From assembly GCA_040285855.1 (NCBI GenBank), contig JAUFOQ010000002.1:2728001-2792000 (forward strand): 64,000 bases of DNA. The letters run 5' to 3'. Within the stretch, counting starts at the first letter, position 1. Each line of letters starts with the position of its first letter. Below are positions 17,074 to 50,280 of the stretch, in pieces. Position numbers and translations under genes: made by a program. Origin of the DNA: Eukaryota sp. GEM-RC1. Taxonomy: Eukaryota. The notes under the pieces were generated by a model that ran no database searches, was not told the origin of the DNA, and worked only from the letters and a program-made list of their open reading frames with translations.

Positions 17074-17092
17074 TGGTCATGAGGGTGCCGGC

Positions 17093-17235
17093 AGGGAAAA
17101 GTTGTGACAAACTTTCTTCCCTTACCCATCTGTGAATTTCTCCTAAGATGAATTCCCCATAACGAATTATGGACATTCATCTACACTCACAGTGCACATG
17201 GGCTGTGGCGGTTCTATCCCTTGCGGGTCCGCCAC
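17093..17235 (-). ncRNA. Candidate omegaRNA scaffold of Fanzor A, overlapping the ORF end
   Basis: Three consecutive hairpins: 17205-17235 (gtggcgg/ccgccac, GCAA tetraloop), 17124-17203 (long stem, ccataa-TTCG-ttatgg apex over the stop codon), 17093-17122. Confidence 0.65.
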
Positions 17236-20200
17236 TGTTTCTGTTATTGAATCTTCATTGTTGTTTGTAGTCTTTACTGATCTCTTCCGTCTTTCTTCAG
17301 CTAACTTGTCGGAGAAACACATTGGTCGATCCTCACCAGCGAGAGTACACTCAACAATCTTCAGAATATTCAAACAGCTATTGAAGTCTCGATTCCAGAG
17401 TTTATGACATTTTTTACAACGCACTAAACCCCAACACTTGACTTCATCGGGCTCTTCCTGCCACAACAGCTTGTCATCTTCGTCCGTCCAACTAGACCAA
17501 TTCATCAGCGCTGATAGGCGATTTGCCTTCTTTTCAACTCTTCGCTTCTTCTTCCTGAAGTTTGGATCCTTGACTTTAAGGAAGGTTTCCGTTTCCCCTT
17601 CGTCATCGTTGTTCTCAGAACATCCGTGGCACTGAAGAGATGTCCTGAATTCGTTAACCAGAAGAACCTGATAGCCAGCTTTTTTGAACAACTTTCTCGA
17701 TCCTTTCCCCATGGATGGAGGCTTGTATTTCCTATGCCTTGACTGACTCCAATCACCTATGGCCAACCACGTGTTGGTTGGATCTCCGTAAACTTGACGG
17801 AATCGATGGAGTATTTTACGTTCACTTTTTTCCTTGTATACTGATTTCCAATAGCTCCATTTGCGCCATTGAGATTGATGGTACAGAGACTCCATTCTAT
17901 TTGCATACTTGTAGAATTGTTGGACGTACGCTTTGAATTTTGAAAAATTTGTTGTTTTGGAAGTAAATTCTGAAAATTCTGTCTGAATCTGTTCAGCTGT
18001 CAGTTGTCTTCCTGAAATTTCGTTAAAAGAATAGTTTTTGAAGGCTTGGTTCTGAAATACATTGTATTTTTTTTGTTTTCCTTCGTGCCTTCGAGTTCCT
18101 TGAGTATATCTCATTTTTTTGAATTGATTTTTCTTTTGAAATGGTCTCTTTTTACTTGATTTTTTGACCTCATCATTCTCTTTTTGGAACTGGGCTTTAT
18201 GCCTTTTAATTTCTTTCAATCTCTTCTTTTTCGTATGTTTTTGAGATTTTTGGGTCAAGTGGGGAGCACAATGCACAGGATTATTAATTTCTTCCTGGGT
18301 TTTTCTTCCAACCAAGTACAGAATATCCCATTGGTTAGGATCCCCTACCACGACATTTTTTCTTTTTTAAATACTCTAATTTTTCAGGATGTAAATCTTC
18401 CACATACTCCTCTTTTTCCTCTGGAGACTTGGCAGAGTATGGTTTTAACAGAAGATCATTTCTGGTCATCATGAGACTGATGGATTCACCATTGGTAGTT
18501 ATCTGGTGACCAAATGAATACATCTTTTGAAAGTGTTCAAGTACTTGTGATCAAGATTCAAATAGTGACTCCAAATTTGATTTTTAAATAAATTAATGTT
18601 TTCGCTCAGATGTGTTAGATTATAACCTTGAACTTGAGGTTTAAATATATTAATCATAGCCATCGTATCCAATCGAAGGTGATCAGGAATTAAGCTGGTG
18701 GATTGTGGAAACATGCGGTACATCTTTGGTGGAATCTCATTACAGGAAGGGTTATTCTCAATCAATTTGTTGAGAACGAAGGCCTCTGGTAAGAGCTCCA
18801 AAGGCTTTACCTTTAATTGGTATTTGAGTCCTTTAGAGTCTGGCTTAAAGTTTTTGACAAATGTAATGAAATTTTGATGTTCATCTGATGGATTTTGCCA
18901 GATCTCGGTAAAATCAATATCGGATCCTCTGCCTTCTAAAATTTCTTTAAGGATATTATTGGACAACTTTTGCAACTGGTCTTTTTCGACTTTTTTCACT
19001 GCATTGTTTTTAATAATTTTTAGTTGTCCATTTAAATTAAAGAAGAGTTCCCATGTTTTTTCCAAATATTCAATAAAATGGGATGAAATATTATTTTGAT
19101 ACATTGTAACAATCTCAGTAGCTGTATAACTTAATGTACGATACATATCAGAGTACTTGACATTGGGAATTTCCATATCCACAGGGAGAAGATGTTGGAT
19201 ATAGAAGCATCCCAGTTGAATTTTCAAATCATTGTGCTTTTTGCCTGGAGTACTTTGAACAATCTCAGTTACCCATTTGAGAATTTCACTTCCCTCAATA
19301 TTTTCCTCATTTTTAAATCTTTGATGAGCTAATGGAGACAAGTATCCAATAGTCCAGAGCAATTGTTGGACACTTTCTTTATTCCATTCTACTGGGTTCA
19401 ATTCCTGATGATCAAAAGAATTCATGCAAAAGCCTTGAAGTAGCAGCAATGCACGTTGTTTAATTCGGTGATGATTTATAGAAATTTCATTTACCAATAT
19501 GTTGTTATCAGTCCAAACAGATTTAAGGGTTACTTTAACCGTTTTTTCACCCGGACATTTTAGCAATTCTTGTGTTTCGACTTGAAGGAAATACACAAAA
19601 AGGCTTTGTAATTCAACAATATCGTTAAAATGTTCACGTAAACATTTCAAGTTTTGTTCAGATGTGAAATCTGTAGAAACTGGTGTGGGAACTGAATAAC
19701 TTTCATTTTTTAAAATGTTCTTTACAACAGTAACCCAATTCAAAGATTTTCCAGTTCTAGGTCTGTAATAATTTCTAATAACACGGCCCAAATCTATTAG
19801 CTGAATTTTCGAATTTTTGAATTGTTTTAAAAAATATTTGTAAAAGAGAGGACACTGAATATTTGAACAATTCTCTGATTTTAAATTAAATTCATCCAAC
19901 GTAGAACTTTCATCATAACCAATTATCAGACCACAGTCAGTTAAAACTAAATAATCATTAAACGCACTTATCATAGATTCCTCTTGATTAAACGCTTGAA
20001 CATTCACTCTAGCATGCTCAGAATTAGGTGACAGAACTGAATCGCAACTTTGTTGTGTAGTGAATATAATTGATTCTACAATTGAAATTACTTGGTCCTG
20101 GACCTGAACTGTTTGAGTGATAATTGACGTGATTATTATTTTGTCTTTTTTCTTTTTTAGTTTCTTTAGTAGCTGCTGAAGCTTCAATCATTTTTACAAA

Positions 20201-20450
20201 AATGCACTTAATCGAGTGTTTGTGATCTAACATTAAGGTTACGTTTTCGAAAGGATCTTTTTCTTTTTTTAGACTTAACTGGTGATTCTTTTTCGTTTGT
20301 TTTTTCATTTGTTTTTACTGCCAATGGGCATTTTCTTATATCATGACCAGTGTTTCTACACTTTGAACATTTACGCCCTATTGGTTTTTTCACCAGTTGG
20401 GGTTCGTTTTCATTATTATTGTTTGATCGTTTTTGTTTTCTTGGAGGCAT
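17167..20450 (-). CDS. Fanzor (TnpB-like RNA-guided nuclease) with N-terminal CCHC knuckle and exonuclease-like domain; frameshifted
   Basis: RuvC-I VVGDPNQWDIL, AIGDWS, RuvC-II LLVNEFRTSLQCHGC, Zn ribbon RCKKC, RuvC-III WNRDFNSCLNI; frameshifts at A-runs near 20265, 20150, 18527, 18360. Confidence 0.88.
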
Positions 20451-21091
20451 ATTGCTGACAGTGGCAAGCCTTTTCCTGGATTAACGTGGCTGTCCAGTTT
20501 CAAGTTCAATCTGATACGAAATTGAGAGGGATCAAATTGATGATGCATAATTTCATTTTGAAAATCTGTCATCATTATACAGTGATCAATGTGACCAATT
20601 GTTTCAACATTAAATGTCTTAAATAATACTTCAATAAAAAACAGAACAAATATGCCACAATCATAACCATTGTCCTGTTTCACAGTATTAATGTGACAAT
20701 GGTAAAAGTGGTTTGGGCAAAACGATTGTATAAAATCAATTTTTGAGGACAACAAATTACTATTAGAGATAGAATCCATGAAGTATAACGTTTCAGTAAT
20801 GAAATCTATAACACATAGTCCCCAGTGAGTTCCCGCAAATCCGTCAATAATACCATTGTTCATGAGAATAAGAACAAGCCGACAATCTGCATTTTTTTCT
20901 CTTATATCATGATAAATAACATCTTTCTCTAACGTTAGAAAGTTATATACATGATAAAAATCCAATAGTTTGATTGGCGAGTGGGTAATCCAAACTGATA
21001 TTATTTATGGAAAAAGAAGATGGAATAGCTCTAACCATTCACATTCAAGCAACAATGTTATGTCTTCAAATTCATGTGAGTTAAATGATAC
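20390..21091 (-). CDS. Ulp1/SENP8 (peptidase C48)-like cysteine protease domain, following the 2A site
   Basis: GTHWGLCVIDF..YFMDS...KQDNGYDCGIFVL gives H, D, Q and C; one in-frame TAA at 21005-21007. Confidence 0.85.
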
Positions 21092-21136
21092 CGGTCCGGG
21101 ATTCGACTCGATATCACCATCGTTGGTTAAATCTTT
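21092..21136 (-). other. 2A/StopGo ribosome-skipping peptide KDLTNDGDIESNPGP
   Basis: Exact D(V/I)ExNPGP consensus in ORF 21005-21685. Confidence 0.88.
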
Positions 21137-21340
21137 CACAAACAAATGAATCAAACAAAATTTGAAATTGTGTTTATTCTCCAAATCAAAAGTGAATTGC
21201 TTTTGTCGAGTGTTACCACAAGACACGGACCACTGCGGTATTAACTCATCAGGAGTTGCAGATATCAAGCTGTTAGCCTCTTCTCTGCAACTGCCCTGAG
21301 TCGTTAATCCTGGGTTAGGGCCGTAGTCCCCACCCAAATT

Positions 21341-21624
21341 CATAACTGAAAGGACGGAACTTTCAGTCTCAACTGGATATGAAACATCCAGCCGAGGAGG
21401 ATTGGAACCTCTTATAGTGTTAGGAGGGTCGGAACCTCCTGAACACATAACTGAAAGGACGGAACTTTCAGTCTCAACTGGATATGAAACATCCAGCCGA
21501 GGAGGATTGGAACCTCTTATAGTGTTAGGAGGGTCGGAACCTCCTGAACACATAACTGAAAGGACGGAACTTTCAGTCTCAACTGGATATGAAACATCCA
21601 GCCGAGGAGGATTGGAACCTCTTA
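21341..21624 (-). repeat. 105-bp tandem repeat, ~2.7 identical copies, in frame (35 aa) and built from four hairpins
   Basis: Units start at 21341, 21446 and 21551. Confidence 0.95.
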
Positions 21625-22784
21625 CTGTGTGAGACATCAACAAACCTGATGGAGTCATGAGACGGAAATAAGTCACTGTCGACATTGTTATTGATTGTTC
21701 ATCACTTTCCTCTCAGCAGGATTCCGTTTCATAAGGGATTTTGATTTTGCCAACAGTTTTCTTTTCACTTTTTACTGCTACTGATGCAGCTTTCTCAGGT
21801 ATCAGCGTCTTGCTAGTCCTAACACGCTTTGATTGACTTACTTTCTTTCTTGAAGGTGTTCGCTATATCTGCACTGACTGGTGCTACAGGTCTTATTGCT
21901 GTCTTCTATCCTGCTGTTAGATTTAAGGAATACGAGCTTCTTCTCATTCTGGCTTTTGGAATTCTTTCACCATTTGCTGAACTTGTCTGCAAGGACGACA
22001 ATAGCTTCGACTCTTCTTCAGGTCTAGAAATCATGGGTAAGTTGCTGCGTTGTGTACAAGTGGTTTATGTCTTCCTATAATGCTATTCCACATTGACAAT
22101 ATAGCCGCCATCCCTCTAACTATTGATTTAAGCGGGCTATGCTTTTCTACTCCTCGGTATTCATTTTTGTTGAGAAAGTTGCTCCTGACAACGACTCCTT
22201 TTAGTTCCTGTTTTGTTCATTGTAGATAAACTCAATCAAACAGTATCCATTTTATCTTCGTATCCGTCTCTTCCTTATAGTGTCTCTGTAATAGTGTGAT
22301 TCCTTTGAGTGTGGGTATACACTTTTGACATGATCAATGCTAAATATCACATGTCAGTCTTGTTACTTGTTCTCTTCTTAAATCAAGACGCTCTTTCATA
22401 CCCTAGATAAACAAAATGATAGCTATGGATTGTACAGAGTTTATTGATTCTATACATCTAGATAATGCACACAAAACTTAAACGTTGCAAAACGGAGGTG
22501 TTAGTGGTAACCTATGTCTGTATAAAACACATCACATTTTAACAATGTCTACAAGGAGACATTGGCATTTGGCATTTGTATTGGCTATACGTCATCAGCA
22601 AATGTCACTAGCATTCGGTTTGGGGAGTCACAGAGCTCTAAAAGAACGAGAAGTACCAGAGTGTGGCTTCGTTGTGGATATGAGTTTGGATGATGAAAAT
22701 GTGGATGTGGAATTTATTCACACTGAAAGCAAAACACAGAACTAGAAATGCGGATTTTATTCACACTAAAACCGCAATTCACCC

Positions 22785-25127: not shown

Positions 25128-25231
25128 GTTGTCATTTCTCAGTTTAGTTGTATTTTATAAGTTAAAAGATTTTATTTATTTTCTAAAGAATATTTTTCTC
25201 AATATATATTTTTCCAAATATTGGCCTCTTT

Positions 25232-26248: not shown

Positions 26249-26279
26249 CTACTTTTCTTCTTTGAAAAACGATCCTCAA

Positions 26280-26618
26280 ATGTCTCTTTTATCAGACAAT
26301 GTTAAACGAATGCGGTTTCTACAAAGAGCATCTAATGTATCAAAGGAAATCGCCCATATTCCCGTTGACCAATGGGTATTGATTAAACACCCAGAGTCTC
26401 CTCAACAACCTACTGTATTACCTTTCGTTGATACAACTTGTACAAAAATTGGTATCGGACGCTTCTCGTTCAACGGCTTCAATAAGGAAATCGAACTGCA
26501 GATGCAGGAGACTACTAAAAAACGGCGAAGTGGAGGTAATGATGTTGATATCTCAACGGAGGAGATGTCAAAACTTATGTCTAATCCTGTACCAAAGCCC
26601 AAGAGACGGAAACATTAA
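26280..26618 (+). CDS. MPP6: M-phase phosphoprotein 6-like exosome cofactor
   Basis: LSDNVKRMRFLQR and GRFSFNGFNKEIE motifs; ATG at 26280. Confidence 0.75.
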   Translation: MSLLSDNVKRMRFLQRASNVSKEIAHIPVDQWVLIKHPESPQQPTVLPFVDTTCTKIGIGRFSFNGFNKEIELQMQETTKKRRSGGNDVDISTEEMSKLMSNPVPKPKRRKH

Positions 26619-27011: not shown

Positions 27012-27083
27012 TTCGCATACCGGGAATCGAACCCGGGTCTAGCATGTGAGAGACGCTAATGCTAACCACTACACCATATGCGA
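27012..27083 (-). tRNA. tRNA-Glu(CTC)
   Basis: Acceptor TCGCATA/TATGCGA plus A; anticodon arm agcgt-ctCTCac-atgct; T arm ccggg-ttcgatt-cccgg; T-run terminator downstream. Confidence 0.93.
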
Positions 27084-31378: not shown

Positions 31379-32357
31379 GCACATACCCTTCAAATTACGA
31401 TTACTTCATGTTCAGTTATTTTGATTCAATTCTCAACCGTCTCGTTAAATTGAGATATGAAATTGCTGGACAATATATTCTTTATATTATTATAATGTAA
31501 TGTAACATCATCAAAATACATTCATCACTTAGATAAAACAGTTCGAGGTTATGTTTCTATACTCCACCTGTTCAGTGTTGTAAGCCAAGATTCAAAAACA
31601 ACAAGCGTTCCAAAATCTGGTAGGTCCAAGGGTGGATGGTATTCCCCAAGATGTCTCGACAAGACGCAATTATCTAATACTGTCAAAATAATCGAAATAT
31701 GTAACGGTTGTGAACGAAGTTACTTCCAGAGATCCAAAATTTAGCCAGTTAAAATTGACTGAGAGAGTGAACGTAACACACTGTTTGAGGAAATCGCCCT
31801 TTACAAGGTTTTAACGATTAAGTGGAAAGAATTTCTCAGTATGAAGCTGATACAACTCCTGTTTGGCTCAAGTCCATGGCTATACTAATGATGACGAAGA
31901 TGGAGGACTACTGGCAGAGGATGTTGTGTATGGCAATGTGTTGGATCCCCTAATTCCCTTTATTCGGTGAAGTAATGCTTAGATTATAACGATGTATTGA
32001 ACGCAGTTCTTTAACAAATGTTTTTATACAAATACTGTTTCCAATTATGGGCAGAATTAACTTTGATAATGATACCGTAAAATTCAGTGAAAAATGGTCA
32101 GGTTCGGAACAGTTCAGGTTCAAGTCTTCAATACAGTGAACTCGGACCGGTTTCAGTTTCAAAGGTGAGACCTCCCCACGCAGAATTTAAGAATAATTTG
32201 TCTTCGAATTTCCCATCATGGATATAATGTACATGCCAACGTGGAATGCTCCCACCTTCTGATGTGCCGCAATAAGAGAGAGATGTTTATACGGCACCCA
32301 ATAAGGTAACCTTCCTACAAACTATGAAATTGTAAAAACAAACAAATAATACTGAGA

Positions 32358-32780
32358 TTAAATCCAAACGACTTCATCACCACCCGGTAAAAGATTACGT
32401 TTATCAACATTAACCTTCACACCAAACTTGTACAATTTCTCAATTAACCTAGAGAAATAGAAAGGCATATTCCGATATATGGAAAACACTATACGGTTTT
32501 TCCATTCAGCCATTCTAAACTTACGCTTCTTTTCTTTACACAACTCTTCGAAATCCTTGAAAAATTGATCACCAGCAGGACTAATAGATCCAAAAAGAGA
32601 AAGAGCAAAAGGTTGAAACACAAATTTGGAATATGAGTTTCCATTTAATTCTTCTACTTGAGAGTCATACTTGGAGTGTTTGAGCTTTTCAGCAGCTGTT
32701 AATGGATTAAAAGAAGAATAATATGCCGCAATAATGTTCACCGTACACCATATGCGATTTTTGGTTCCATTAACCAACAT
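32358..32780 (-). pseudogene. CRE-like non-LTR 3' fragment (REL endonuclease-like)
   Basis: AAEKLKHSKY...FQPFALSLFGS...WKNRIVFSIYR. Confidence 0.7.
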
Positions 32781-33399
32781 TTTGTTACATAGAGTGATCT
32801 TTCATTTTTCTGATAGACGCCTACGCAAGTTAAATCAGCTACTACATCCTGTATCAGAACATTGGTGCCATTGATCACTCAATTTCACTGTCTATAGTCT
32901 AGACCCGCTTCCATTACTATTATGTTCCGGACACATTTCTTTGTCCAATCCAATGGAAATTGACCAGTTTGTGTTAATGAATCATTTGTTTTGCCATCCA
33001 GATTTAGGCGGTATTTGTTTCACTTTATCTAGGCGTCTTTGTAAAGCCACGTTTATTAGAGGCGGTGTGAGTTTTGTATTTGAGTTATGTAATCGTTTTC
33101 CTGAAAGAAGACCTCTTTTAATTTGCCTTTCCTTTCAATATCGCAGCGAGTTGGAAAGACAAATAGATTCACTATCTCCCTGAGACCTGGAATTCACGTT
33201 TCCCAAATAATGTTAAAGACATTCCATCTCTACTTTAGCAAATTTGCAGTTCTGTGTCAGAAAACTGCAAAATCATCTTACAAAAATATAACGAAAGCTT
33301 GCATTTTAAACTTCGTCTTAGCTCGGCTAAGAAAACAAATTCCGGTTTTACGAATTTTTATGTGATTTGAAGAACAGTTCTGCTTCTTCTCTGATAACG

Positions 33400-34200
33400 C
33401 AAACACCGATCGTTTATGGACTACTGCTTAATGATGAAGAATGTACGACCGTTGTGCGTGTGTGATGCTGTATAAATTGCCCAGTAACATTCCTAATAAT
33501 AAACTAGTAATTGGAAAATGTGGTCAGGGTATATCATCCATTTCATTGTTGTCGTTTTAAGGTTAACAGATCGGTTGTGAATAATGTAGTTCGAGATCAA
33601 ATATTGTTAATCTGTAAATCGTAACGTTTAGAATCTTTTCTAAAAATTGAGTGGGATCTTTTTGACATTTCTTTTGTTGGCTTGTTTGATCCCGAAGCCA
33701 AGAAATTGCTACAAAAATTTGGCGGCGTGGCACAACAGCATTGTAACAAGTCTTTCAACCAAAGATATTGGACTAACATATTGGTATTTTCTGTTTTCAA
33801 GACTGTTCCTCAGATGCTGAAAAGAAGCCTGATTTCTTTAGGCGACCATTTCTGCCGTCTTGTTTGTAGGCAAAAGAGATTTTGAGGATATTGCTTTTTG
33901 AAAGAGTACCATAGGTTTCTGTTTGTTTGTTGTATTAGCCTTTTAGCAATATATTTGACTTTGAGAATAATACTCTTACTGTAGATTGATTATAGAGATT
34001 TAGCACCATACATATAAATAAGGTGTTTAATAGCGCTGTATGGATTAATCGAATTATGTTCGCTCTTTATAGAAGCATTCCCAAGTATTTATGTTCCATT
34101 TATTCGAAGTTGTTTAGGGACAATTCTCGTGTTGATGTGGAGAATTTAACTTCTTTCATTTTCTGAATTACAATATAGTATGTATCAATTTATTGTTGCA
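33400..34200 (+). pseudogene. Two tandem CRE-like non-LTR 3' fragments
   Basis: FDISFVGLFDPEAKKLL...YWTNILVFSVFK at 33661-33800; WINRIMFALYRSIPKY at 34041-34090. Confidence 0.55.
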
Positions 34201-34437: not shown

Positions 34438-35190
34438 TCATCGTCCTTTCTTTAGTTTGGTTAACTCACTACGTTGTTCCTGATTTAACTTACTCATCGC
34501 ATCATTAAGGGTACCCCAATAAATTTTCGTGTAATTCTGTCTCAGAAACATAAAGACAGTAGATGGATCGCTTTTAGAGGATTCTTTACATATCCAAGCA
34601 ACACATTTTCGGATTAAGTTATCCTTGCATTCCAAAAGAGTTTTAGTTACTTCAAGTGCAACTGGAACAGATGCAGCGATTTTCCTACACGGACGACAAA
34701 ATACAGCTATTGAAGTGCGACGCACAAACAGTTTGGATGATGAATTCCATTCCCTCACGTCATCAAGAAAAGGGCTTTCAAAAACAGGAAAACGACCTAG
34801 GTATTCCAGACATAACATGTCAACAGCCACCCAACTATCAGCAAACGGAACAAATCTCTTGATAGTATTCCACACATCAATGTTGGTAAAATCGGAAGGT
34901 TGTGAGATAGCAGTGAGTAGACATGGTATGAAAATATGGGGTTCTAGGTATTGTGTAGTTGAATATAGGTCAAAGAGAGCATCGCTGACATCCACAACGG
35001 TCAAGTTCTTTCTATAGCTCTTGCCTATGATAGTAGCTTGCTTCCGTAATGTGGGATTGGATAAACCGAAACTCAATCGGGTAGCATCTTTGCCTAGAAA
35101 AGGCTTCACACTGGTATCTCGTTCAGGAGGAAGAGTGAAAACCTCATTGACATCCTGAAGGAATCTTTCAATTGACAAGGAATCAGTCAT
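34438..35190 (-). CDS. AlkD-like DNA alkylation repair protein (HEAT-like repeats)
   Basis: FGLSNPTLRK, DSWVAVD, WNSSSKLFVRR, LIRKCVAWICKE. Confidence 0.75.
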   Translation of the reverse strand: MTDSLSIERFLQDVNEVFTLPPERDTSVKPFLGKDATRLSFGLSNPTLRKQATIIGKSYRKNLTVVDVSDALFDLYSTTQYLEPHIFIPCLLTAISQPSDFTNIDVWNTIKRFVPFADSWVAVDMLCLEYLGRFPVFESPFLDDVREWNSSSKLFVRRTSIAVFCRPCRKIAASVPVALEVTKTLLECKDNLIRKCVAWICKESSKSDPSTVFMFLRQNYTKIYWGTLNDAMSKLNQEQRSELTKLKKGR

Positions 35191-35218
35191 GAAGTTTTGT
35201 AAAAAAATCCACGTTTGT

Positions 35219-36921
35219 AGTTCGTATTACAAACCTCCTTCTTACGAATACATGACCACTGATTTGCTCCCTAAAGTAGAAGCTGAAATGAAGGAAAAAA
35301 TGAGTAAGCTCTTCAACAAAATTTTGATAACTGGGATGACAATAACTTCAGATGGATGGTCGGATGTCAGGTCAAGACCGCTCATCAATCTTATGGGTGT
35401 CTCGATGGATGGTGCATTTTTTCTGACCTCATTTGACACTTCAGGAAACATTAAGACTGGGGAGTATATTTCCACGCCAATTTCTAACTGGAAACTTGGT
35501 CCTGAAAAACCTCACACTTTGGTTACTGAAAATATCATCCAAGTAATCACCGACAGTGCTGCTAATTGTGTGGCATCCGGTCGTTTGTTAGAGAAAAAAT
35601 TTCCTCAGTTAAATTTTAGTCGGTGCTCTGCTCACATTATTGATTTGATTTTAAAAGATATTTCCAACTTGTACTTTATTACTCCGATTTTTGTAAAATG
35701 CCATCGAGTCTTACGTTTCTTCAAAAACCACAGTTTCCTTAAAACTGAAGTGGAAAAAAAGGCTAATCTTACATTAGTTAAACCAGGTGAAACACGATTT
35801 GCCACAAATTACTTGGTGTTGAGTCGTTTACTGAAAATTAAAGCTGCTTTAAAGCTTACAGTTATCGATGACCACGTTCGACACTGGGTTCATCTACAAG
35901 ATTCCAAGTCACAGAGAGAGTTTCTTGAAATTGAATCTTCTGTACTAAACGAATTGCTTTTCTGGGATGAAATTTCTGATCTTATCAAATTGTTAACTCC
36001 TCTTGTTATTTTTTTTGAGATTTGTAGATACAGATTCACCTACAATCTCCAAAATTGTCCCCCTCTTTTCCAAGGTATTAGAAAAATTGAAAACCGCCAA
36101 TTTACGTACGTTTTCACAAGAAGAAATTGAATTAATTGAGGAAATTAATGAGAAAAGAGAAGCCACAATTACTAATGACCTTCACTTAGTGGCATACGCC
36201 TTGGACCCATTTTATGCTGATGTCTGGGTCCATGATGATTCCAGAATCATCAATGCCGTTCCAAGAATTTGTTCAAAGATATTGGGGCAAAAGTTCAAAG
36301 AGAAGGAGCTTGAGTCCAAAGTTGAACTGGCAAAGAAGCAATTTTTACAATACAAATTGGGGAACGGTATTGTCATGAGAGAAGTTGTTCAAGAAGAGAG
36401 GAAAACCACTAATGGATTCGAATGGTGGATGGAATATGGCTGTCTGATGCCAGAACTGCAGTATGTGGCTCAGCGTATTCTTGCCCAAGTATCGTCAAGT
36501 TCTTCAGCGGAAAGAAATTGGTCTGTTTTCAGAGGAATTCATACAGACAAAAGAAATCGGTTAGGTGTTGAAGTACCAAAAAGTTTGGTTTTTGCAAACT
36601 TCAATTCTCAAGTGCTGAAGAAAATGGATGCCGTTGATTACAATTTCAACCACAAGATTCTGTGTGAACTGGAATCAGAAGAAGCAGACTAGGACCTAGC
36701 AATGGAACATAGTGATTTTGAAGATTCTAAAGCTGATGATTCTGATCAAACAAATTGGGAATTAGAAGCCAACATGGAGGATTTGAATGAAGAAGAAGAT
36801 TATGGTGATCCATTTTTCGTTGGAAAAAGCATGGTACCCACATTGGATTTTTGAAAAGAGGGTATCACGATGGTACCCAAATTTATGGTACCCGGGGTAC
36901 CATTGGTACCCGTCATCACTG
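35219..36921 (+). mobile_element. 5'-truncated hAT transposon (DUF659 region and dimerisation domain) with intact right end
   Basis: YKPPSY, ITSDGWSD, VITDSAAN, CSAHIIDL, TRFATNY, SSSAERNWS; frameshift at T-run ~36010; ggtacc subterminal repeats 36832-36911; ends cactg at 36921; flanked by a 17-bp direct repeat. Confidence 0.9.
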
Positions 36922-36925
36922 GAAA

Positions 36926-36980: not shown

Positions 36981-37000
36981 GCTAACAAAAATACATAAAG

Positions 37001-38304
37001 CTAATTTCTACACAAATACTCCACTCTCTCATAACTACCACTCATCCAATGCTCGAACATGTTCATCATGTTCAAACAAGCCATCTTGTTGCGATTCCAA
37101 TAGAATTTGAATGGGCACTGTGTGCCCTTTCTTTTCCCCCCTTCAATCGCTTCTTGACTTCTCCCAGACAGTGTTTGCTCTTACACTCTAGTAAGCCATG
37201 TGGATGAATCCATTCTCTTTTCTCTCTTGATTTGGGCTTTGGGTTGACAACCTCAATGGAAGTTTCAAAAACATCTTCATGACATTCTGGACACTTGGAC
37301 GAAGTGTTTCTCTCATCATTCAACACTGTTAGAAAACCATTTCTCTGAAAGAATGAAGTCCAAGTCTTAGTTCTGGATGGTGGACTGTGTTTTAAGTTGG
37401 TGATTGGCTTCTGGCCTCAATCACCAATACATAGTACGATTTTGTCACGCTTACCAAAAGTTTTTACAATGCTGTTAACCAATTTAGACTCTGTCTTTTG
37501 CTTATGGACATGATTTTGGATTTTGTGAATCCTCCATATATGCAAAGCATAGAAGTCTTTAGTTGCATCGTAGTGAATACATTTAGCCAGAATAAACTTT
37601 CTAAATTTATTGTAATTAACAGTTTTAGAATTGTGATCTTCACCTAACCAAGTGTTCCATTCTTCAATAGTCTTCGTCTGACCTGAGGGACTAGTACCTG
37701 ATCTCCTTCTAACAAGGTACTGGTGGATTCTTTTATGCTTTCTGGAAACTCTAGACCACTCAGCATATGTCAATCGTAAGAAGTTATATTTTTTTAGAGG
37801 ATTTTGAGTTTCCCTATTTGATTTAGAGGCAAGTTGTAGCATATCTCTCTTTCCAATGTCCACATAAACCATTTGTTTAGAAATACAATCAGATCTATCA
37901 CATTCATTGAAATATTGTACTTTTACTGAAGCTTTACTTGGATCAGGTTTACATTTCATTCCTTTCAAATCCTTTCTCACAAATTGAAAACAAATCGAAA
38001 TTCCATCAGTTACAGCATAATTGTTGAATTCAAAATTGGCTTTCTCAAAACTTCTGTCATCACAGGTAAACCATCTTTTCCAGTAATCTTGTTGTTGAGA
38101 ATGGGTCATGTTGGTGATCTGATTAGCAGACATGTAATTAGTCACTTTTGAATGTAGAGGCCCAGTCTTCTTGTCATTATTCTTATATCCAAAACAGTGC
38201 TTAGCCAGTCCCCAAAGAGTTCTAGTATCTATTGGGAAAAAACAAGGAGTATTCTCTAAACTTAGAGGAATTACATTATACAACTTAGCACCCTTGGATT
38301 CCAA
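37001..38304 (-). pseudogene. Fanzor C, 5'-truncated and inactivated
   Basis: VTDGISI, VYVDIGKRD, CIGD*(W to TGA at 37417), NDERNTSSKCPEC, HGLLECKSKHC; after a frameshift, WNRNKMACLNM (catalytic D to N). Confidence 0.85.
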
Positions 38305-38339
38305 GTAATCTGAGATTTAATGCTAATGGTACGGTTCTT

Positions 38340-38460
38340 TCTGGTTCTGTAAATCGAATTGTGTTTGCTCATTACAGAACTAGAAGCATTACAAAGTATT
38401 TATGTTCCATTTATTCCAAGTTGTATATGGATAATGCTCATGTTCAGGGATTGGAAAAAT
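38340..38460 (+). pseudogene. CRE-like non-LTR extreme 3' fragment abutting the broken 5' end of Fanzor C
   Basis: Nucleotide similarity to 34048-34145 (aatcgaatt...agaagcatt...aagtatttatgttccatttatt). Confidence 0.55.
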
Positions 38461-38980: not shown

Positions 38981-39013
38981 ATTGGCAGAATTTTCAACTC
39001 GTAGAAAAAACTG

Positions 39014-39697
39014 TTGTTGCAAATAAACACTACTGAGACCAAGAAATTGTTAGAAAACAAGAATAATTTCATATATTCCCACTTAAGAGAAATCTTGGAT
39101 TTAGATGTTGGCAAATACGTCTCTTTTGCAATGTTACAGGCCTGTTTCGCAGGAAAAATTAATCATTTTCTAGATCTTCCTCCTGAAGTGACTGGTGATT
39201 TTTCAAGAAATTTTAACAAAATGAGAAAATCTTTTATGGGTAGTTTAGTAGGCAGTGGTGATTCATTACCCAGTGATTTAATTGGCCCTTGGTTAAATTG
39301 TCAAGAAGTTGTTTTGGAGTTCGCCACTGTGGATCCATGTAATGATACTGCTAGTAGCATAATATTGGATGATCAATTTTCACCTTTGGATAATGCTCAA
39401 GACAAGAAATGTCTTCGTTTTTGTGACTATATTGCTATATTAAATTCACAAAGACATAATGCTTTGATGTTTCAACTATTCGATATTTCAATTTATGGAA
39501 ATTTGGGTTCTGCAGCTCAGACGTTGCTGTCATCGTTTAATCAATTGTGTTGTAAATTTGGCAAGAAGTTCATTATCATTAGTTTTTGGAGGGATAGTCT
39601 CGTTTTTCATATATTTCGTTTAATGTTTCAGTACTTCGACGGAATTTTGAAGAACCTCTTTGGGGTTCAAGATCATTTCAAGGAATATTATTGTTAA
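39014..39697 (+). pseudogene. CRE-like non-LTR 3' fragment (REL endonuclease-like)
   Basis: EFATVDPC...AQDKKCLRF...FDISIYGNLG...FWRDSLVFHIFR. Confidence 0.65.
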
Positions 39698-41639: not shown

Positions 41640-42069
41640 AGGTTGATATTGTTTAGTTTATCACAATCTACAACAGTTTCTTCTTGAATGGAAATTCCAA
41701 CTACGATTTGTTGGCTGATTGTTCAATTTCAAGGACTATTGTTTTGCTTTCCAAGAGAATTAGTTCTACCTCCTTGTTTCTGAATTAGTTGTTTGTTTTT
41801 AGCTTCTTGATGATTTCGTGGTAATGTGATATAGGTAGTGTTTTAACGTGTTTTTTTAGCACACCAACCAATTGAGTATCTTCACGAGGATCTATCTACT
41901 TATGATGTTTACTAACATACTAAGTAAAGTAGACCCTGTACCCGGAAATTATTCGTAGCCAACATTTAAAAATTGATTTTTTTTTGAAAATAAAATGATT
42001 TTATATGTTGATCAAAAACAATGCAAGATGCCATTAACATTAGAATAATTGAAAAGGGCAACATGAATC

Positions 42070-43607: not shown

Positions 43608-43610
43608 TTT

Positions 43611-43717
43611 AACTGTGGATTTCATTTCAAATGCATAATTCTACACTCACACCTATATGCACTATCACCACAGTTTGACACATTGTGCCACTCATTTGCA
43701 AGCCTTTTAGGACGAGC
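43611..43717 (-). ncRNA. Candidate omegaRNA scaffold of Fanzor B
   Basis: Hairpins gctcgt...atgagt (43690-43717), tggcac-aat-gtgtca (43676-43690), aactgtgg..agtgcata...tatgcatt..ccacagtt (43611-43675). Confidence 0.55.
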
Positions 43718-43730
43718 TAACTTATAAGAT

Positions 43731-46700
43731 TCAGGATTCCGGTTCTTCATTCTCTACTTGTGAGTCTTTGGGTACATCTTTCTGGGCCTTACTTGGGCAA
43801 TTTCTTCTATCATGTCCTGGTTGTCTACATATCGTACATGTACGAGGACTTTTAGGAGGCACAGGTCTTTGAGGACACTTTGCCGTTGTATGGCCTTCCA
43901 TATGACAAAACTGACACTTACTCACACTCTTCTTCTTGGGAACCTGATCTGTAATCCCACCATCCTCGATAGTTATTGTTTGAGATTTTGGTCTCTCGAG
44001 GACAGCAGGTCTACCTTGACCTTGGATAATTCCATTTACAATGTTATAAATGTTAATAGCAGAGTTGAAGTCTCTATTCCAGAGGACATGACATTTAGCA
44101 CACTGAACTAAGCCCCATGGTGAGACTTTTTTGCTCTTTAGTCTTTCTTTCATGAATGGCAACTGTTTGGTCCATTCATCATCAAAATTACGTTTCACAA
44201 CATTGTCTAATTGATTGTGTTCCATAATTTCTTTTTTCAATTTCTTCTCCTCATTCTGTAACTTCTTCTTCCAATTAGGATCAGTGACTTTGATAAAGTC
44301 AGGATTGGAACAGATACCTTCCTGGTTTTCTTCAGCACAAGCAGAGCAACATTTGCTTGTCATAGAATTCATCAACTAAGAAAACTTTAAATCCAAATTT
44401 TCTTAGTAAGTTTCGAAGAGTAGCGCCTTTTACTGTACTTGCCTTACCCCTTCTTCTTCGGAATTGAGTGTCATTCCAATCCCCAAAACCAACCACGACT
44501 TCATCTGGATCACCATATTGGAGAGCTAATCTGTGGACCAAGTTTTGTTCACTTCGTTCTTTTCTTGAATATTGGGTAAGGCGTCTACGTCTAAAAAATT
44601 TCTCTTCATAAAGACCTTCAGCTGCATCAGGTATTTGTTGAGTTGGTCCTGTCTTAGGTAGTTTCTTTGATGGTCCTTTCTTTTTAGGTAATCCTTCAGC
44701 AGTTGCTTTTCCAGTTGTGGTTGATCTCATTAATGCACAGAAAACTTCATTGTTAACCATGTACCTTGAAAATTCTTCCAATTTACATGATTTTCTTCTT
44801 GGAGTATCAGAACTGTAGGAATCCAGTACTTTTGACCATTCCACACACTCTTCTCAAACTCAGTTGAGTACCTCTGTAAACGTTCACTTTCAGTCAATTC
44901 GACAATGTTTTTGTTACAGCGCTTTCTTTCAAGTTTTTTGAAATTTCTTTTTTTCTTTCGTTCCTTTTTAGCTTTTTTTCTTTTTTTGTTTCTTTGTCAA
45001 TTTTTTTGGAACTGTGATGGCTGATTTTTTCTTGGTTTCCATCTAGATTTGTTAATATCTGCCTTTCTCTCCCCAGCAGTGTATCGGAACACCTTCCATT
45101 TGTCACGATTTTTCCACTTTACAGGTTGTGGGTTAGTGTCTTGCTTCCAATCATTTAATTGTTTTTTCATTTTTTCAAACTTCTCCTTTTCTTAGAAGAC
45201 AATGGAGCAATCTTTCTTTTTCTAACTTGGGTAACTGACTTGGGCTCAATTTCCTTCTCACCTGAGGAATCATCCTTCTCAACTGAGGAATCAATAGATT
45301 GTTCATTGGAAGTAAGATCAATTTCTGTAACACAAGCATTGGCCATTCCATTTTCTATCAATTGTTTTGTTTCATCAACTTCAAATTTCTCACACGCCTC
45401 TTCCTCATCAGTTTTTAAACTTGCACAATACATGAGATCATGTTGGTTGGGGTCAACAGCAACAATTCTCTTAGATTTTAAATTCAGTTCTTCAATTTCA
45501 TCTTCACTTAAGGAATCAATATAACGCTCATTTGAAGCAAGATTAACTGCTGTAACATTTTCACGGGCATTTCCATTTTCATCAAGTAAATCTTTCCTCA
45601 TCATTAACAAACTACAACTTAAACCGTCTGACGAAATTGAAGTGTATTTAAAGTCATAGGATAATGACTCTGGAATAGCCTGAGGTTTTAATACTGAATT
45701 CCAAATAAGTTTCCGTACTTCATTATAGTTATAGGGAAGATCACTACAAAATATTTCGTGAAACCATTGCGTATCGAACCTGATATGATTTGGAATTAAA
45801 GATTTAGACAATGGGAAAGGATTGTTTGCTCTTACACCAGGACAATAGTCTTCAATGAGACGGTTCAAATACAATGCATGACTTAAAAAGTATAACGGAT
45901 CACTCTTTTCGGCATAGTAGATCGTTTTCTCCATCTTTCCTTCAAAATAATTAAACAAATAATTGAAGAATAATATACTCAAGTGAGATTCCGGATTGGT
46001 AAAAACTTGCTTGTCATCAAAATTAATTTTGGAAATTTCACCATTAATGATCAATTCTCTAACTTCATTAATCCTTTGACAGAGTTCTTGTCTTTGAGTT
46101 TTGTCAGTAAGAGCTTCCATTCTCTCTTTCTTTTGAGTAACCAAGTTAAAGACTTGAAAAACATATTCATGGAAGTGTTGGCTCATGTTGTTCTTATAAT
46201 TAGCAATAATTTCGGTTGCAACGTAACCGAGAGGATTAGCCAAATATAGTCCACTTGGAAACACGATCCTATCTTTACCAACCATTTCACCAGCAGTTTC
46301 TAACAGAGGGATGTAGTTTGATAGGAAGTGTTGGGCGAACTCCTTCTTTGTAGTTGTTGTTTTTGCATTAGAAATGATGTTGTTTAAAGAGTTTTCCACA
46401 GTTTTAATATGATCAGTGCTGTTGAAAAATTGGTGATTTGGAATCCACATCATGGCCAACAGTTGTCCCATTGGACCCTTCTTAAAGTAAGCTCCCCAGT
46501 CTGGTAATTCAAATTTGGTAATTTGAATTTTAGTAAAAAGGTCAAGTTCAGGTTCACCAGTTTCATTTTCAATACTGTCTTCTTCTAAAATTTCACCGTC
46601 TTCATCTAAAATTTCAAATCTAATTGTACGATCGCAAACAAAATGAGGGTCTGAAGATACAGACAATTCAGTTTCTTCTTCTAATTGTTGAGGCACAAAC

Positions 46701-47872
46701 TCTTCACTTAAAATTTCTGTTTGTTCAGTGTCTGAAACTTCAGTGTCTGTTTCAATTTCTTCTTTAACAGTGGGAGGTAGTATCTCTTTGACCTTGTCGA
46801 AAATTAAAGAGTTGTGAAACTTAGTAACGAAAAAATGTTTCAACATATGAGTACCACGAACTCTGACCTGATGAGCTCTCTTAGCACATGATTCCATCCA
46901 ATTCGCTTTGGTCTTTGATACAACATTATCTAATCGTTTTTTCACAACCTTCATTGGTGGTCGTTCTCTTAATTGTTGCTTCTTTTCATCGAGAAGATCA
47001 AAGAGAAGGTATTGTATCAGAAACAACTTATTGATTGAGTTCGATAACAAAGTGGCTCTCGAAGTGGTTCTCGAAGTTTTAGATTCCCAAAGTTCATTAA
47101 GTTTTGTTAATTCTGCTAACAATCGAATCTCCATTTCAGCCTTGGGTTTTAGTTTCAGAGATGGCGCTTTGTTTTGACGTTCATCAGTTTTAACCTTAAT
47201 TTCTTCATCTGACACTAGAGGATTGTCTAAAGAGTGAAATATTCTCTTAAGGAAGATATTTTCATTGTCAAAACTTTCAAATGTTCTTGAATGATTATTC
47301 ATGTCCATCATAATTGTGGTCACGTTTTCCAAAAACCGACCTCTTCTAAAGACATACAACTTCTTCAATACTGAATTCAAGTCAAGGGAATAAAAGGACC
47401 AATTTCCGTTGGTTTGCACCATCTGTGGAACCAAGTTGGAAGAGAAGAAATGTAATCATCAATTGTATAATCAATGTCAATTTCTAATTTTTTACATCGT
47501 GATAAAAAAAAACGGAAAAGTATCTAAATGCCAATCATAACTTATTAACAAACTGGGCTTGTTAAGATTTAAAAATGTAATGAAATTTGTTAACATTGAT
47601 TTTTCAGTTGTAAACGTGTGAACTACACAATTAGGAAGTGAAATTTCTGAAACATTATGGGTGAATAGGTGAGTTTCATTTGCAAATTTATCATGGGTAA
47701 ACTGAAGAGAGATTGACACAATTGGATCTAAATCTGGATCACGCTGAATTTCAAAAGTAGTATCCTGAATTTGTGGAATACCTTCTGAAGTTGATTCAAT
47801 CTCTTCGTCTACTTCTGGCTCCTGTTTAACTCGAACGACTTTAAGATTCAAGCGTTCAGGATCTGAGATCAC
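43731..47872 (-). CDS. Fanzor with N-terminal exonuclease-like domain and two C-terminal CCHC knuckles; frameshifted
   Basis: ISSDGLSCS, RuvC-I IVAVDPNQHDL, VGFGDW, RuvC-II FLVDEF/MTSKCCSAC, WGLVQCAKC, RuvC-III WNRDFNSAINI; CQFCHMEGHTTAKC and CTICRQPGHDRRNC. Confidence 0.88.
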
Positions 47873-48199
47873 ACTTTTTATCTCAATTACACAGAACTTT
47901 TGTGGTTGTTTGGGTTCTTGTTCTGTAATTGATGGTTTAGGAGTTGGAGACGTGGGAACGGGTTCAGATATTGGTGATGCAAGTTTGGGTTTACTTTTTT
48001 GGTGCTTAAACCAGTGGATGCTTTAGTGCTAGCTAGACGCAAACCTGTGAGAGACGCAGGAACAGGTTTTGATACAGTCGGTGGCAATAAGTTAATGGCA
48101 GAAACTTTAGTTTGAGGAGTGGCACCGGTTGAAACACTTGAACTGGACAAACGTTTTGGAGGGACGGCTGGCATTTTTGGCACATGCGACAAATCAACA

Positions 48200-49453
48200 G
48201 GACTAAAAGTTTCAAAATGTTCCAAAATTTTACTTCGAGACTCGTGAACAGCAATAGTGGTATTACCCAGCAGTTCTTTAACATCAGTCCACCTTATGAC
48301 CACAGATTGATCTAAATTCATTAAAAGATCAATGTATTCGAGAACACAAAAACCAGAGTCAGTTAGAGTATGTTTGATATTTGATGGAATAAATTCTATA
48401 TTTCTGGTTTCACACATTGACAACACTGAATAAATTTTTGACACAATTGTAAATAAATTGGAGGAAGATGGTGCAACTGGCGTTTGGTTAGCAGGAAATT
48501 CTCTGGCATAATCATCCTCAACGTAGGTCGGATCAATGAATAAAATATGACTTGTAGGAGATGAAATGATCAGAATAATTAAACCCCAATGACGACCATC
48601 AGCAGTAAGATCACACATTGCACTATTGACAGGAACAAGTAGCATTTGTTGGTTGTTTTGACCACATTGGAACAATTTCCGCGTCAAAAAATCTGAAAAT
48701 GGATATTTATTATAGGCTTGGTCACCATATAATAACGGATATAAATCAGTTGGCCCAATTACATAGTCATAAAAGATTAAACCTGTTGATTCCACAAGTA
48801 TTTTGGAATATTTGATGAACAATTGATCGTCAACATAAGTAAACAATTTTTGAATCTGTTTACGGAGATCTGCAGCATTAAGTTCATTGTTAACTTCACA
48901 CAACCTTTTTTCAAAAAAAATCAATCGATAGATTAGACAAACTTTCATGTGTTGTAAGAATTTGTAAGTACTTTTGAACATATGCAATGACATAAATTCC
49001 ACAATCACTTGGAGTCTGAGATTTCGGGACGTTTGCATAACGTATCGTGAAACTTGGCATTTTTTCACTGAATTTATCAACAATGGGGTTCAAAAAGTTG
49101 GAGTTCAGTATTGGATCAATAACTGTTGCAACATTTTGTACACAATCCAATAGAATAACACCCCAATGAGATCCTGAAAATGTGCGTGACGCAGACAGGG
49201 CAGTCATACCGTCGTTGATAGGAGCAATGAGGAATCGAGTACCGGTGGTTTTAGCACTAAAAATTTGATGATCTACAGTTTGTTTATGTTCAGGAGAAAG
49301 ATCAGTAATTAATCCATTCATCACACTAGAGAAGATACAGTATAGATCAAATGCTAGTCCAGCAGAGCTAAAAAGGTACTCACAATATTGAAAGATAGCA
49401 TCGTCATCTATCCATTGGCCAGGATTCAGATACTCTAGGGAGTCTTTGGACAA
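48200..49453 (-). CDS. Two tandem Ulp1/SENP8-like domains (first with catalytic Cys, second with Ser)
   Basis: Domain 1: LNPGQWIDDDAI..APIND..GSHWG..VIDP..SQTPSDCGIYV; domain 2: VPVNS..GRHWG..FIDP..TLTDSGFCV; joined across the T8 run at ~48915. Confidence 0.8.
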
Positions 49454-49498
49454 CGGTCCGGGATTGGACTCAATGTCACCGTCGGCGGTGAGGTCTTT
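49454..49498 (-). other. 2A/StopGo peptide KDLTADGDIESNPGP
   Basis: Exact consensus, in frame with both the upstream repeat and the downstream protease. Confidence 0.9.
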
Positions 49499-49581
49499 TG
49501 GGAACGGAGGATGGGAAGGGATAACACATGAATAGAAGTAGAGTACATACAACAGCAGAGATGGAAGTGTTTTCACAACAT

Positions 49582-49878
49582 AGAAAAAGCTATCCATATA
49601 TCGACTCAACGGAGATAGAATCCAAGCAGGGGATTCCGCCTCATATTGGGTCAAATACAAACAACAAGGTGGCAGCATGACATCAACGGGAGAGGAGAAA
49701 AAGCTATCCATATATCGACTCAACGGAGATAGAATCCAAGCAGGGGATTCCGCCTCATATTGGGTCAAATACAAACAACAAGGTGGCAGCATGACATCAA
49801 CGGGAGAGGAGAAAAAGCTATCCATATATCGACTCAACGGAGATAGAATCCAAGCAGGGGATTCCGCCTCATATTGGG
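49582..49878 (-). repeat. 114-bp tandem repeat, ~2.6 identical copies, in frame (38 aa)
   Basis: Units start at 49582, 49696 and 49810. Confidence 0.95.
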
Positions 49879-50280
49879 CCAAAAGAGGAGCCTTGTACGG
49901 AACAGAGTGTCTGTTAGAATGTAAAACAACCAACATTTGTGGAGAGAGGAAAATGAAATGTTTCAGTCATCCCTGTAGTCTAGACTACAGTACAATTCTA
50001 CTATCACTTGTAGTCAGTAGAGTGTCAAAACATCAAAACAACTCTTATGTTATACCATCATCCGTGACCATTAGTGATTACTTAAGAAGTCTTTAAGACT
50101 GTCAATCGTATAACCAAACTCATTGACTTAGTTAGTCCTCTTCTGAATTCATTTGCTATAAAGCCAGGTATAGTCGTAGACGAGAAGAAAATGAATTAAT
50201 TCCAATAAGTTATGAAGTAATGAATGTAAATTCACTTGTCTGGAACGAAATCTGTAATAAAGTCTATAGCAGAATTTCCC

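Follow-up and report, generated by a model that had tools for sequence, protein, structure and literature searches.

Fanzor1 nucleases, exemplified by SpuFz1 of Spizellomyces, PpFz1 and GtFz1, are proteins of about 600–800 amino acids (PMC10711439). In the MCi-2 Fanzor1 family of Mucor circinelloides (Bao and Jurka 2013, PMC3627910), which is unclassified and lacks terminal inverted repeats (TIRs), several 5' regions occur on a near-constant, Fanzor-coding 3' region; this family has target duplications of 11–12 bp, and the passages of that paper devoted to it describe no 2A, protease or exonuclease fusion. 2A peptides of class A are found in non-LTR retrotransposons (L1Tc, Ingi, CR1, Crack), eukaryotic mobile elements in which the motif lies close to the N-terminal end of a single long ORF (PMC3708506). 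In IS605/IS607 elements, TnpB works by homing through break-stimulated recombination: the empty site is cut and recombination restores the element, while new sites are opened by the TnpA transposase (PMC10690162).

The elements described here come from a window of 64,000 nucleotides (the whole stretch of DNA analysed; contig JAUFOQ010000002.1 of Eukaryota sp. GEM-RC1, positions 2,728,001 to 2,792,000). They belong to a family of Skoliomonas, which are culturable soda-lake protists. Two elements, A (17170–21685, minus strand) and B (43734–49936, minus strand), share one domain order: an in-frame tandem repeat, a 2A motif, a C48 protease, a PolB-type exonuclease domain and a Fanzor1 nuclease with a D-E-D triad. 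Coordinates, Pfam matches and direct reading of the RuvC residues all agree with this order, as given in a preliminary description of the DNA, and the coding lengths of ~1505 (A) and ~2067 codons (B), obtained by arithmetic from the coordinates with no joined protein built, match its estimates of about 1500 and 2070 amino acids. Literature searches, Repbase excepted, likewise found no account of a 2A–protease–exonuclease–Fanzor architecture, which that description had not known to be reported.

Domain architecture of elements A and B

Element A
21341–21685, minus: leader with the first ATG (21685) and an in-frame 105-nt tandem repeat (2.7 units, 21341–21624; unit stop-free in the ORF frame)
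21305–21331, minus: degenerate second 2A-like motif, lacking E and ending NPG-L
21092–21136, minus: 2A ribosome-skip motif KDLTxDGDIESNPGP (motif scan)
20600–21091, minus: C48 (Ulp1/SENP8-like) protease, His ~20827, Cys ~20659; in-frame stop 21005–21007; Pfam E 7e-11, PDB Ulp1 1e-4 and SENP8 3e-4
20328–20369, minus: CCHC zinc knuckle (read from sequence)
19600–20210, minus: degenerate PolB-type exonuclease domain, in the same ORF (18502–20187) as the Fanzor REC region
17167–19600, minus: Fanzor1 nuclease with RuvC D/E/D and C4 zinc finger; two frame breaks; PDB SpuFz1 E 2e-11, PpFz1 1e-10
17075–17240, minus: structured 3' tail that may serve as guide-RNA scaffold and stops just ahead of the next host gene

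Element B
49973–49990, no strand assigned: perfect 18-nt palindrome, 37 nt upstream of the ATG
49582–49936, minus: leader (module R1) with the first ATG (49936) and an in-frame 114-nt tandem repeat (2.6 units, 49582–49883)
49454–49498, minus: 2A ribosome-skip motif KDLTxDGDIESNPGP (motif scan)
48914–49453, minus: first C48 protease, His-Asp-Cys intact; Peptidase_C48 E 2e-5
48200–48900, minus: second C48 domain, Ser in place of the catalytic Cys
47000–47900, minus: degenerate PolB-type exonuclease domain; one ORF (45170–47455) holds the C-terminal half together with Fanzor REC, WED and RuvC-I
43990–47000, minus: Fanzor1 nuclease; RuvC D/E/D; long insertions, acidic and basic
43797–43916, minus: two C-terminal CCHC knuckles; stop codon at 43731–43733
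43626–43730, minus: 3' tail

Searches against Pfam, PDB sequences and folds support the protease, exonuclease-fold and Fanzor1 assignments, with some Pfam matches (A's exonuclease, the TNB domain of B's Fanzor) below Pfam's cut-off. All three RuvC acidic residues claimed for the Fanzors were located by direct reading, at ~18342/17652/17388 in A and ~45454/44370/44072 in B. The triad is also complete in P0022, a relative introduced below, and the Glu lies just before the C4 zinc finger, a shifted position shared with Fanzor1. Cas12f1-like_TNB matches A with E 5e-7 and B with E 4e-3 (below the cut-off). The nearest solved structures are Fanzor1 proteins, with which the family also shares DP at RuvC-I and the TDG-type WED motif (TDG in P0022, SDG in B, TNG in A). 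It differs in its size of 1470–2070 amino acids, in having DPN rather than DPG at RuvC-I, and in the exonuclease, protease and 2A added N-terminally; SpuFz1 has 30-nt inverted repeats, whereas none were seen here. The Fanzor is likely to be RNA-guided.

The exonuclease domain matches DNA_pol_B_exo1 with E 6e-4 in A (below Pfam's cut-off) and 6e-6 in B (above it). In a fold comparison, using a model of mean pLDDT 41, the top 17 among 48,161 chains were B-family polymerases (Z 9.0–11.9, rmsd 3.3–5.7 Å over 135–188 residues). The proofreading domain of Pol delta is nearest by sequence (E 2e-10), with fold Z of ~11–12 for this low-confidence model; unlike in the polymerases, no polymerase domain accompanies it and the Fanzor follows directly. 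ExoI DxE, ExoII D and ExoIII YxxxD are missing from A and B and from a further two GEM-RC1 body types (4 of 4 examined), but intact in all three TZLM3-RCL proteins that span the domain. Its description as degenerate thus holds for A and B and not for the family. Since none of the four GEM-RC1-type bodies examined retains these catalytic motifs, the element must be able to do without exonuclease activity.

The Ulp1/SENP8-like protease was recovered in both elements with Peptidase_C48 matches above Pfam's cut-off, B carrying the additional Ser-bearing domain. The His-Asp-Cys triad and Gln oxyanion residue of clan CE are present (the second domain of B has Ser), and the catalytic Cys of the first protease is kept in 27 of 28 complete cases. 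The best PDB matches are a mix of Ulp1, SENP8, SENP7 and NopD-like enzymes with weak E-values; by eye, no self-cleavage site after Gly-Gly was seen downstream of the proteases. CCHC knuckles are also present as reported, between protease and exonuclease in A and twice at the C-terminus in B.

The 2A motifs and in-frame repeats of the preliminary description were both found, and these 2A motifs are the sole full ones in six frames of the window. They conform to the class A consensus GD(V/I)ExNPGP with its upstream context; among the 34 stored motifs, 33 have NPGP at the end and one has NLGP. A 2A motif by itself is not sufficient for ribosome skipping (PMC3708506). The single 2A predicted to work would remove only the variable leader. 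The repeat units are also stop-free on the opposite strand, in one frame each, and the open frame is therefore weak evidence of selection; the repeats probably act in cis, as promoter or regulatory units, and not as protein.

A structured 3' tail had been claimed for both elements. That of A is structured (z −3.1, 0 of 200 shuffles; segment picked after a scan), while that of B is not significantly so (z +0.9). The tails have a 12-mer in common (17180–17191 in A, 43640–43651 in B), a match equalled in 51 of 3000 random pairs. An orphan ORF and a Pif1 gene upstream of B were considered as element parts and showed no sign of belonging; Pfam finds no Rep domain in this Pif1.

Copies, relatives and module exchange

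The 2A is present in 34 stored proteins: one comes from the window itself, 30 bear the name Eukaryota sp. GEM-RC1 and are spread over 11 contigs, and three belong to TZLM3-RCL, a second Skoliomonas species. Half of them (17) continue into the exonuclease and the other 17 stop earlier; these sister proteins are gene predictions, in which false introns may bridge frame breaks. In TZLM3-RCL, 2A, exonuclease and Fanzor are encoded in an unbroken ORF, P0022 (KAL0225525.1, 1473 amino acids), without the protease; A is collinear with it. P0022 and P0170 (1479 amino acids) both have the 2A, DNA_pol_B_exo1 (E 5e-13) and TNB (E 2e-7). Because this species encodes the three parts in one ORF without the protease, the core of the family is 2A–exonuclease–Fanzor and the C48 protease is optional: present in A and B as first described, it is absent from all three TZLM3-RCL proteins reaching the 2A, and does not define the family.

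Repeat module R1 (97–100% identity) precedes three proteases that are only 27–44% alike, and one protease pair is joined to two exonuclease types that are 37% alike, with identities within modules of 89–100%. Near-identical 5' repeat modules on such divergent proteases therefore show recent module swapping among copies. This takes place inside the ORF, unlike the exchanged 5' regions of MCi-2 (PMC3627910).

As assembled, A has one stop and ~5 frameshifts and B has ~8 breaks, of which the first three are read through in sister copies and one is common to four sister proteins. Most breaks are likely assembly errors, because they lie mostly at homopolymers and host genes here break in the same way.

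With the exonuclease profile (E <1e-3), four of the best 150 of 190 phmmer matches were recovered, all four named Skoliomonas. No long homologue of A's exonuclease–REC ORF was found among 7645 candidates of 985–2810 amino acids, a weak negative, since the search overlooked P0022, itself a homologue of this kind. Viral contigs gave no relative for any of three queries. A degenerate pattern for the 2A class hit 88 viral and at least 121 metagenome loci, many of them short; by tblastn at E 0.1, none of the 209 such loci listed matches the protease, exonuclease or Fanzor. A quick tree search was run on the 106 of 159 candidates that passed a length filter; C, P0022 and the ORF of B itself were among those removed. 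In this tree the sister of B grouped with TZLM3-RCL and a TZLM1-RC protein (SH-aLRT 96). A fell in an unresolved fork with this group and two unnamed proteins; a single origin is neither supported nor contradicted.

Possible modes of spread

The preliminary description saw a selfish, RNA-guided element expressed as a virus-style polyprotein. The unbroken relative and the dozens of dispersed copies bear out a selfish Fanzor family that is multicopy and read as a single ORF; "virus-style polyprotein" overstates the case, since a single predicted 2A sheds only the variable leader and further processing is not indicated. Our preferred reading, whose chances we regard as evenly poised, is a multicopy Fanzor1 family of Skoliomonas with one long ORF (swappable repeat leader, 2A, optional C48, PolB-type exonuclease, Fanzor) that spreads by an RNA-guided cut and then host recombination. 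Spread by DNA cutting followed by copying-in through host repair is likely.

Translation would begin in the variable leader, which the 2A would drop, and this shedding would make any 5' module usable before any body. A guide RNA from the 3' tail and flank would direct the Fanzor to sites without the element, much as in the logic of IS605/IS607 homing, although no counterpart of TnpA was found in the family. Repair of the break would rely on recombination with a copy that holds the element, as is proposed because metamonads lack classical end joining (PMC8516963, whose passages on this loss do not include Skoliomonas). Switching between dispersed copies during repair would yield mosaics. The role of the exonuclease domain would be to trim the cut 3' end or, where the domain is dead, just to hold that end; a 3'–5' exonuclease does not generate the 3' overhangs needed for recombination. 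The protease would strip SUMO/NEDD8 from host proteins at the site, as an accessory anti-silencing function. Reaching wholly new sites is the weakest step, and would likely involve ectopic repair at partly matching targets.

Some observations run against a homing model: homing alone leaves at least 30 unlinked sites unexplained, B's tail is unstructured and the exonuclease motifs are lost in GEM-RC1-type bodies. Classified Fanzor1 elements also move mostly by transposase in DNA transposons (PMC3627910).

It is possible, if somewhat unlikely, that A and B are non-autonomous DNA transposons (Helitron2-, MULE- or hAT-type) with a transposase elsewhere, the Fanzor only guarding against loss and the extra domains being captured cargo fused in frame. 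DNA transposons are the usual setting of Fanzor1 (PMC3627910; PMC10530073). Pfam finds a hAT transposase encoded in the window, but neither A nor B contains an exact match to the one hAT end seen. The palindrome upstream of B recalls Helitron2 5' hairpins and is a possible, weak candidate for a 5' end signal (11 such palindromes occur in the 64 kb), but none of that size lies upstream of A. Ulp1 proteases and C-terminal CCHC knuckles also occur in MULEs. Against this reading, the candidate end zones of A, and likewise those of B, show no inverted repeat between them that reaches 10 nt, and direct repeats there are at most 8 nt long, as by chance. In line with the preliminary report of no transposase, reverse transcriptase, TIR or target duplication, Pfam finds neither a DDE transposase nor a reverse transcriptase in A, B or P0022, and neither enzyme class appears in the 28 of 34 2A proteins with Pfam results.

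Mobilisation by a non-LTR reverse transcriptase that copies the transcript in trans, possibly primed at the Fanzor cut, with the 2A and exchangeable 5' repeats derived from a non-LTR ancestor, seems to us distinctly unlikely. L1 has swappable 5' monomer repeats, and two remnants in the window resemble C-termini of what we take to be RLE non-LTR elements. The N-terminal 2A of non-LTR elements (PMC3708506) fits such an origin, as do the many non-viral matches of the 2A class, among those listed, that by eye precede APE-like sequences, and the variable 5' ends and 7–19 bp duplications of the MCi-2 and CRe-1/2/3 Fanzor elements (PMC3627910). In contrast to the 2A-bearing non-LTR retrotransposons, the elements here have no APE or reverse transcriptase and their nuclease is a Fanzor. 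Neither A nor B is followed by a poly(A) or simple-repeat tail, none of 14 2A+C48 proteins of 193–2000 amino acids has a reverse transcriptase, and Rfam finds tRNA alone and no ribozyme family.

A host gene family that has decayed or been domesticated, or else a chimera produced by mis-assembly and gene prediction, would account for the many breaks in A and B and the in-frame stop in A but is very improbable, given conservation in two species with an unbroken ORF in one, 89–100% identity within modules, sister copies reading through B's first three breaks, homopolymer breaks in host genes too, and an exonuclease–Fanzor junction within one ORF in A and B alike.

Significance of the family

The family roughly doubles the published size range of Fanzor1, provides a natural nuclease–exonuclease fusion of genome-editing interest, and brings the 2A motif into an element that has no reverse transcriptase. 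A bolder proposal, which we consider unlikely, is a self-propagating element without transposase or reverse transcriptase, in which the Fanzor would break DNA, a captured Pol-delta-type proofreading domain would handle the 3' end, host polymerases would carry copies of the element to new sites that match in part, the protease would strip repressive SUMO/NEDD8 and the 2A would free promoter swapping. If true, this would be a new transposition mode and, for a eukaryote, a gene drive of natural origin that is guided by RNA. The family is a test case for what Fanzors do for elements in eukaryotes: it offers many recent copies, an intact single-ORF version and a lineage expected to mend breaks by recombination, together with natural comparisons between live and dead exonucleases and between zero, one and two proteases.

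Layout and domains of elements A and B

Elements A and B lie in AT-rich, compact, eukaryotic DNA. Each runs from a tandem-repeat leader through a 2A ribosome-skip motif (KDLTxDGDIESNPGP) to a Ulp1/SENP-like protease, an exonuclease-like domain and a Fanzor nuclease.

Extent of the two elements
ATG 21685 to stop 17167-17169, minus strand: element A, about 1505 codons by arithmetic from the coordinates
ATG 49936 to stop 43731-43733, minus strand: element B, about 2067 codons by the same arithmetic

The repeats at the ORF starts have units of 105 nt (A) and 114 nt (B). There are two full 2A motifs in the window, one per element; A also carries a degenerate copy. The common Pfam order is Peptidase_C48, DNA_pol_B_exo1 and Cas12f1-like_TNB, the second in A and the third in B matching under the curated cut-off. 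Both copies retain the D-E-D residues of RuvC, and the nearest solved structures for this part are Fanzor1 proteins; judged by sequence, the family belongs to Fanzor1. B contains two C48 domains, with Ser replacing Cys in the second. Ulp1 domains may also occur in MULE and NeSL elements, though the literature consulted gave no confirmation. The preliminary description was accurate on the shared order of parts, the three RuvC residues and stitched lengths of about 1500 and 2070 aa.

For the exonuclease domain, yeast Pol delta is the top match of an alignment profile (E 2e-10), followed by archaeal PolB. With a low-confidence predicted model (mean pLDDT 41; 60-80 in parts of the core), the top 17 of 48,161 chains are B-family polymerases (Z 9.0-11.9). 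The catalytic motifs are gone from A, B and two more GEM-RC1 body types; the earlier label 'degenerate' therefore suits A and B, but not the related TZLM3-RCL, where all three proteins that span the domain keep ExoI DxE, ExoII D and ExoIII YxxxD intact. Retention of a domain whose catalysis is dispensable would fit a role in end binding.

A structured 3' tail had been proposed for both copies. This holds for A, where a stretch picked after a scan is more stable than all 200 shuffled versions of it, but not for B, whose tail folds no better than shuffled sequence. One 12-mer common to both tails is equalled by 51 of 3000 random pairs and is suggestive only. A ends (17075) and B ends (43626) no more than about 100 nt from where translation of a host gene on the same strand begins; a guide, if there is one, would therefore match the 5' region of that gene.

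The frame of element A is interrupted by a single in-frame stop and some five shifts, and that of B by about eight breaks, mainly in A or T runs. Most of these are likely assembly errors, since the first three breaks of B are read straight through in sister proteins, homopolymers also break ordinary genes in the window, and the named sister genomes are Nanopore R9 assemblies with short-read polishing (PMC11316075). A 7.8-kb host gene has no homopolymer runs of six or more. Against this explanation, the fourth break of B is common to four sister proteins; the stop codon in A could be genuine decay.

Related copies in Skoliomonas and exchange of parts

The isolates concerned are Skoliomonas, anaerobic metamonads from soda lakes (PMC11316075; PMC11603281). 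The 762-aa ORF of B, searched against 1.84 billion representatives, gave 190 matches. Among the best 150, which were listed, only KAL0225525.1 of TZLM3-RCL exceeds 913 aa: a single 1473-aa ORF that encodes a 2A near residue 100, then DNA_pol_B_exo1 (E 5e-13), then the whole of a Fanzor, and that belongs to a cluster of four members. From the exonuclease onward, A is collinear with it. It has no protease, so that the coupling of protease to Fanzor stands for A and B but does not extend to this protein. Exonuclease carriers number only four among the 150 matches listed, all Skoliomonas.

Queries with the 2A and protease of B return 14 proteins between 193 and 2000 aa long: the one encoded in the window, and 13 that bear the name Eukaryota sp. 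GEM-RC1. With cluster members included, at least 34 database proteins carry the 2A: one from the window, 30 from GEM-RC1 (distinct locus tags, 11 contigs) and three from TZLM3-RCL; 17 reach the exonuclease within one predicted protein and 17 stop short. Two TZLM1-RC Fanzor fragments are also related. As first described, no reverse transcriptase or transposase is seen (none in the 28 of 34 2A proteins with Pfam results).

Leaders are tandem repeats with mutually unrelated units, of period 27, 33, 38, 42-58 and 76 aa among database proteins and 35 aa in A. The leader unit of B is found, 97-100% identical, in front of three proteases only 27-44% alike, and one protease pair is joined to two exonuclease types 37% alike; the sister sequences are gene predictions, with only A and B read as DNA. 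Both patterns show that diverged copies have recently swapped modules; the joins fall at or close to two places, the 2A and a linker. Whichever leader is translated would be shed at the 2A, which would render leader exchange harmless. Of 28 complete first proteases, 27 retain the Cys.

The same 2A class occurs at 88 viral loci, on contigs all below 10 kb, and at least 121 metagenome loci; numerous non-viral loci run on, by eye, into APE-like sequence. Other element parts match at none of the 209 loci. The likely source from which the 2A was captured is either an RNA virus or else a non-LTR element.

Neighbouring features

Further features of the window
847-1443, plus: ORF resembling an LTR-retrotransposon integrase tail by eye; no Pfam support
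3113-6981: pair of ABC transporter half genes in head-to-head arrangement, ATPase parts 95% identical
10767-14124, plus: long saposin-like repeat gene; 767-nt near-perfect internal duplications, homopolymer frame breaks
14415-14451, intergenic: perfect 37-nt palindrome
21720-22250, plus: interrupted frames upstream of A, hydrophobic and resembling a membrane protein; either a host gene or a remnant
32361-32801 (minus) and 39005-39694 (plus): related remnants, 30% identical
34047-34133, minus: Fanzor fragment of the 37000-38450 type, 82% identical to 38352-38444
35159-36921, plus: hAT transposase (DUF659, dimerisation domain), palindrome-rich end
37000-38450, minus: third Fanzor1 remnant; stop within the GDW motif, 3' end abutting the hAT end at 36912-36921
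50278-51147, plus: orphan ORF divergent from B; no Pfam or Atlas match
51410-52620, plus: Pif1 helicase without Rep domain, divergent from B, after the orphan ORF
63015-63998, minus: ORF resembling the PHB-depolymerase or esterase family by eye; possible bacterial-type gene

No 2A, protease or exonuclease is seen in the third Fanzor1 remnant, and no left end matching that of the hAT transposase was found. A DNA alkylation repair gene (34441-35190, minus) directly adjoins the transposase start. The two related remnants resemble C-termini of RLE-type non-LTR retrotransposons. Positions 7311-7510 and 32296-32508 are 78% identical.

Known Fanzor systems and mode of spread

Fanzor1 proteins, of up to about 800 aa (PMC10711439), are known in Mariner, Helitron2, IS4, Sola2 and MuDR elements (Bao and Jurka, PMC3627910). 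The closest precedent is MCi-2, which lacks TIRs and whose 5' regions vary (PMC3627910). The word 'exonuclease' is absent from PMC10432273 and the accessible part of PMC10711439; in the portions consulted, PMC10530073 names a protease in its methods only, and PMC6338049 and PMC5735166 contain nothing direct. Two recent 2A surveys mention neither Fanzor nor Ulp1 in the main text, while their supplements may list these peptides. Literature listings combining Fanzor with protease, exonuclease, homing or Skoliomonas, at abstract level and outside Repbase and most subscription journals, gave no such architecture, which we could not find described.

In bacteria, TnpB cleaves sites that lack the element, and the recombination this triggers puts the element back (PMC10690162). 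The metamonads covered by PMC8516963 lack Ku and DNA-PKcs and are thought to be recombination-dependent; the same may hold for Skoliomonas. Intact RuvC residues, the lack of a transposase, the absence of detectable ends in the candidate end zones of A and B, and the mosaic copies together favour, at about even chances, spread by cutting, after which host repair would copy the element in. A transposase acting in trans, the usual situation of Fanzor1, is a possible but less probable vehicle. Copying by a reverse transcriptase in trans would fit the 2A position and the 5' repeats, but not the missing tail, and is rather improbable. Artefact or domestication is very unlikely. Cutting followed by host repair would explain the retention and mosaicism of these elements better than their first arrival at new sites.
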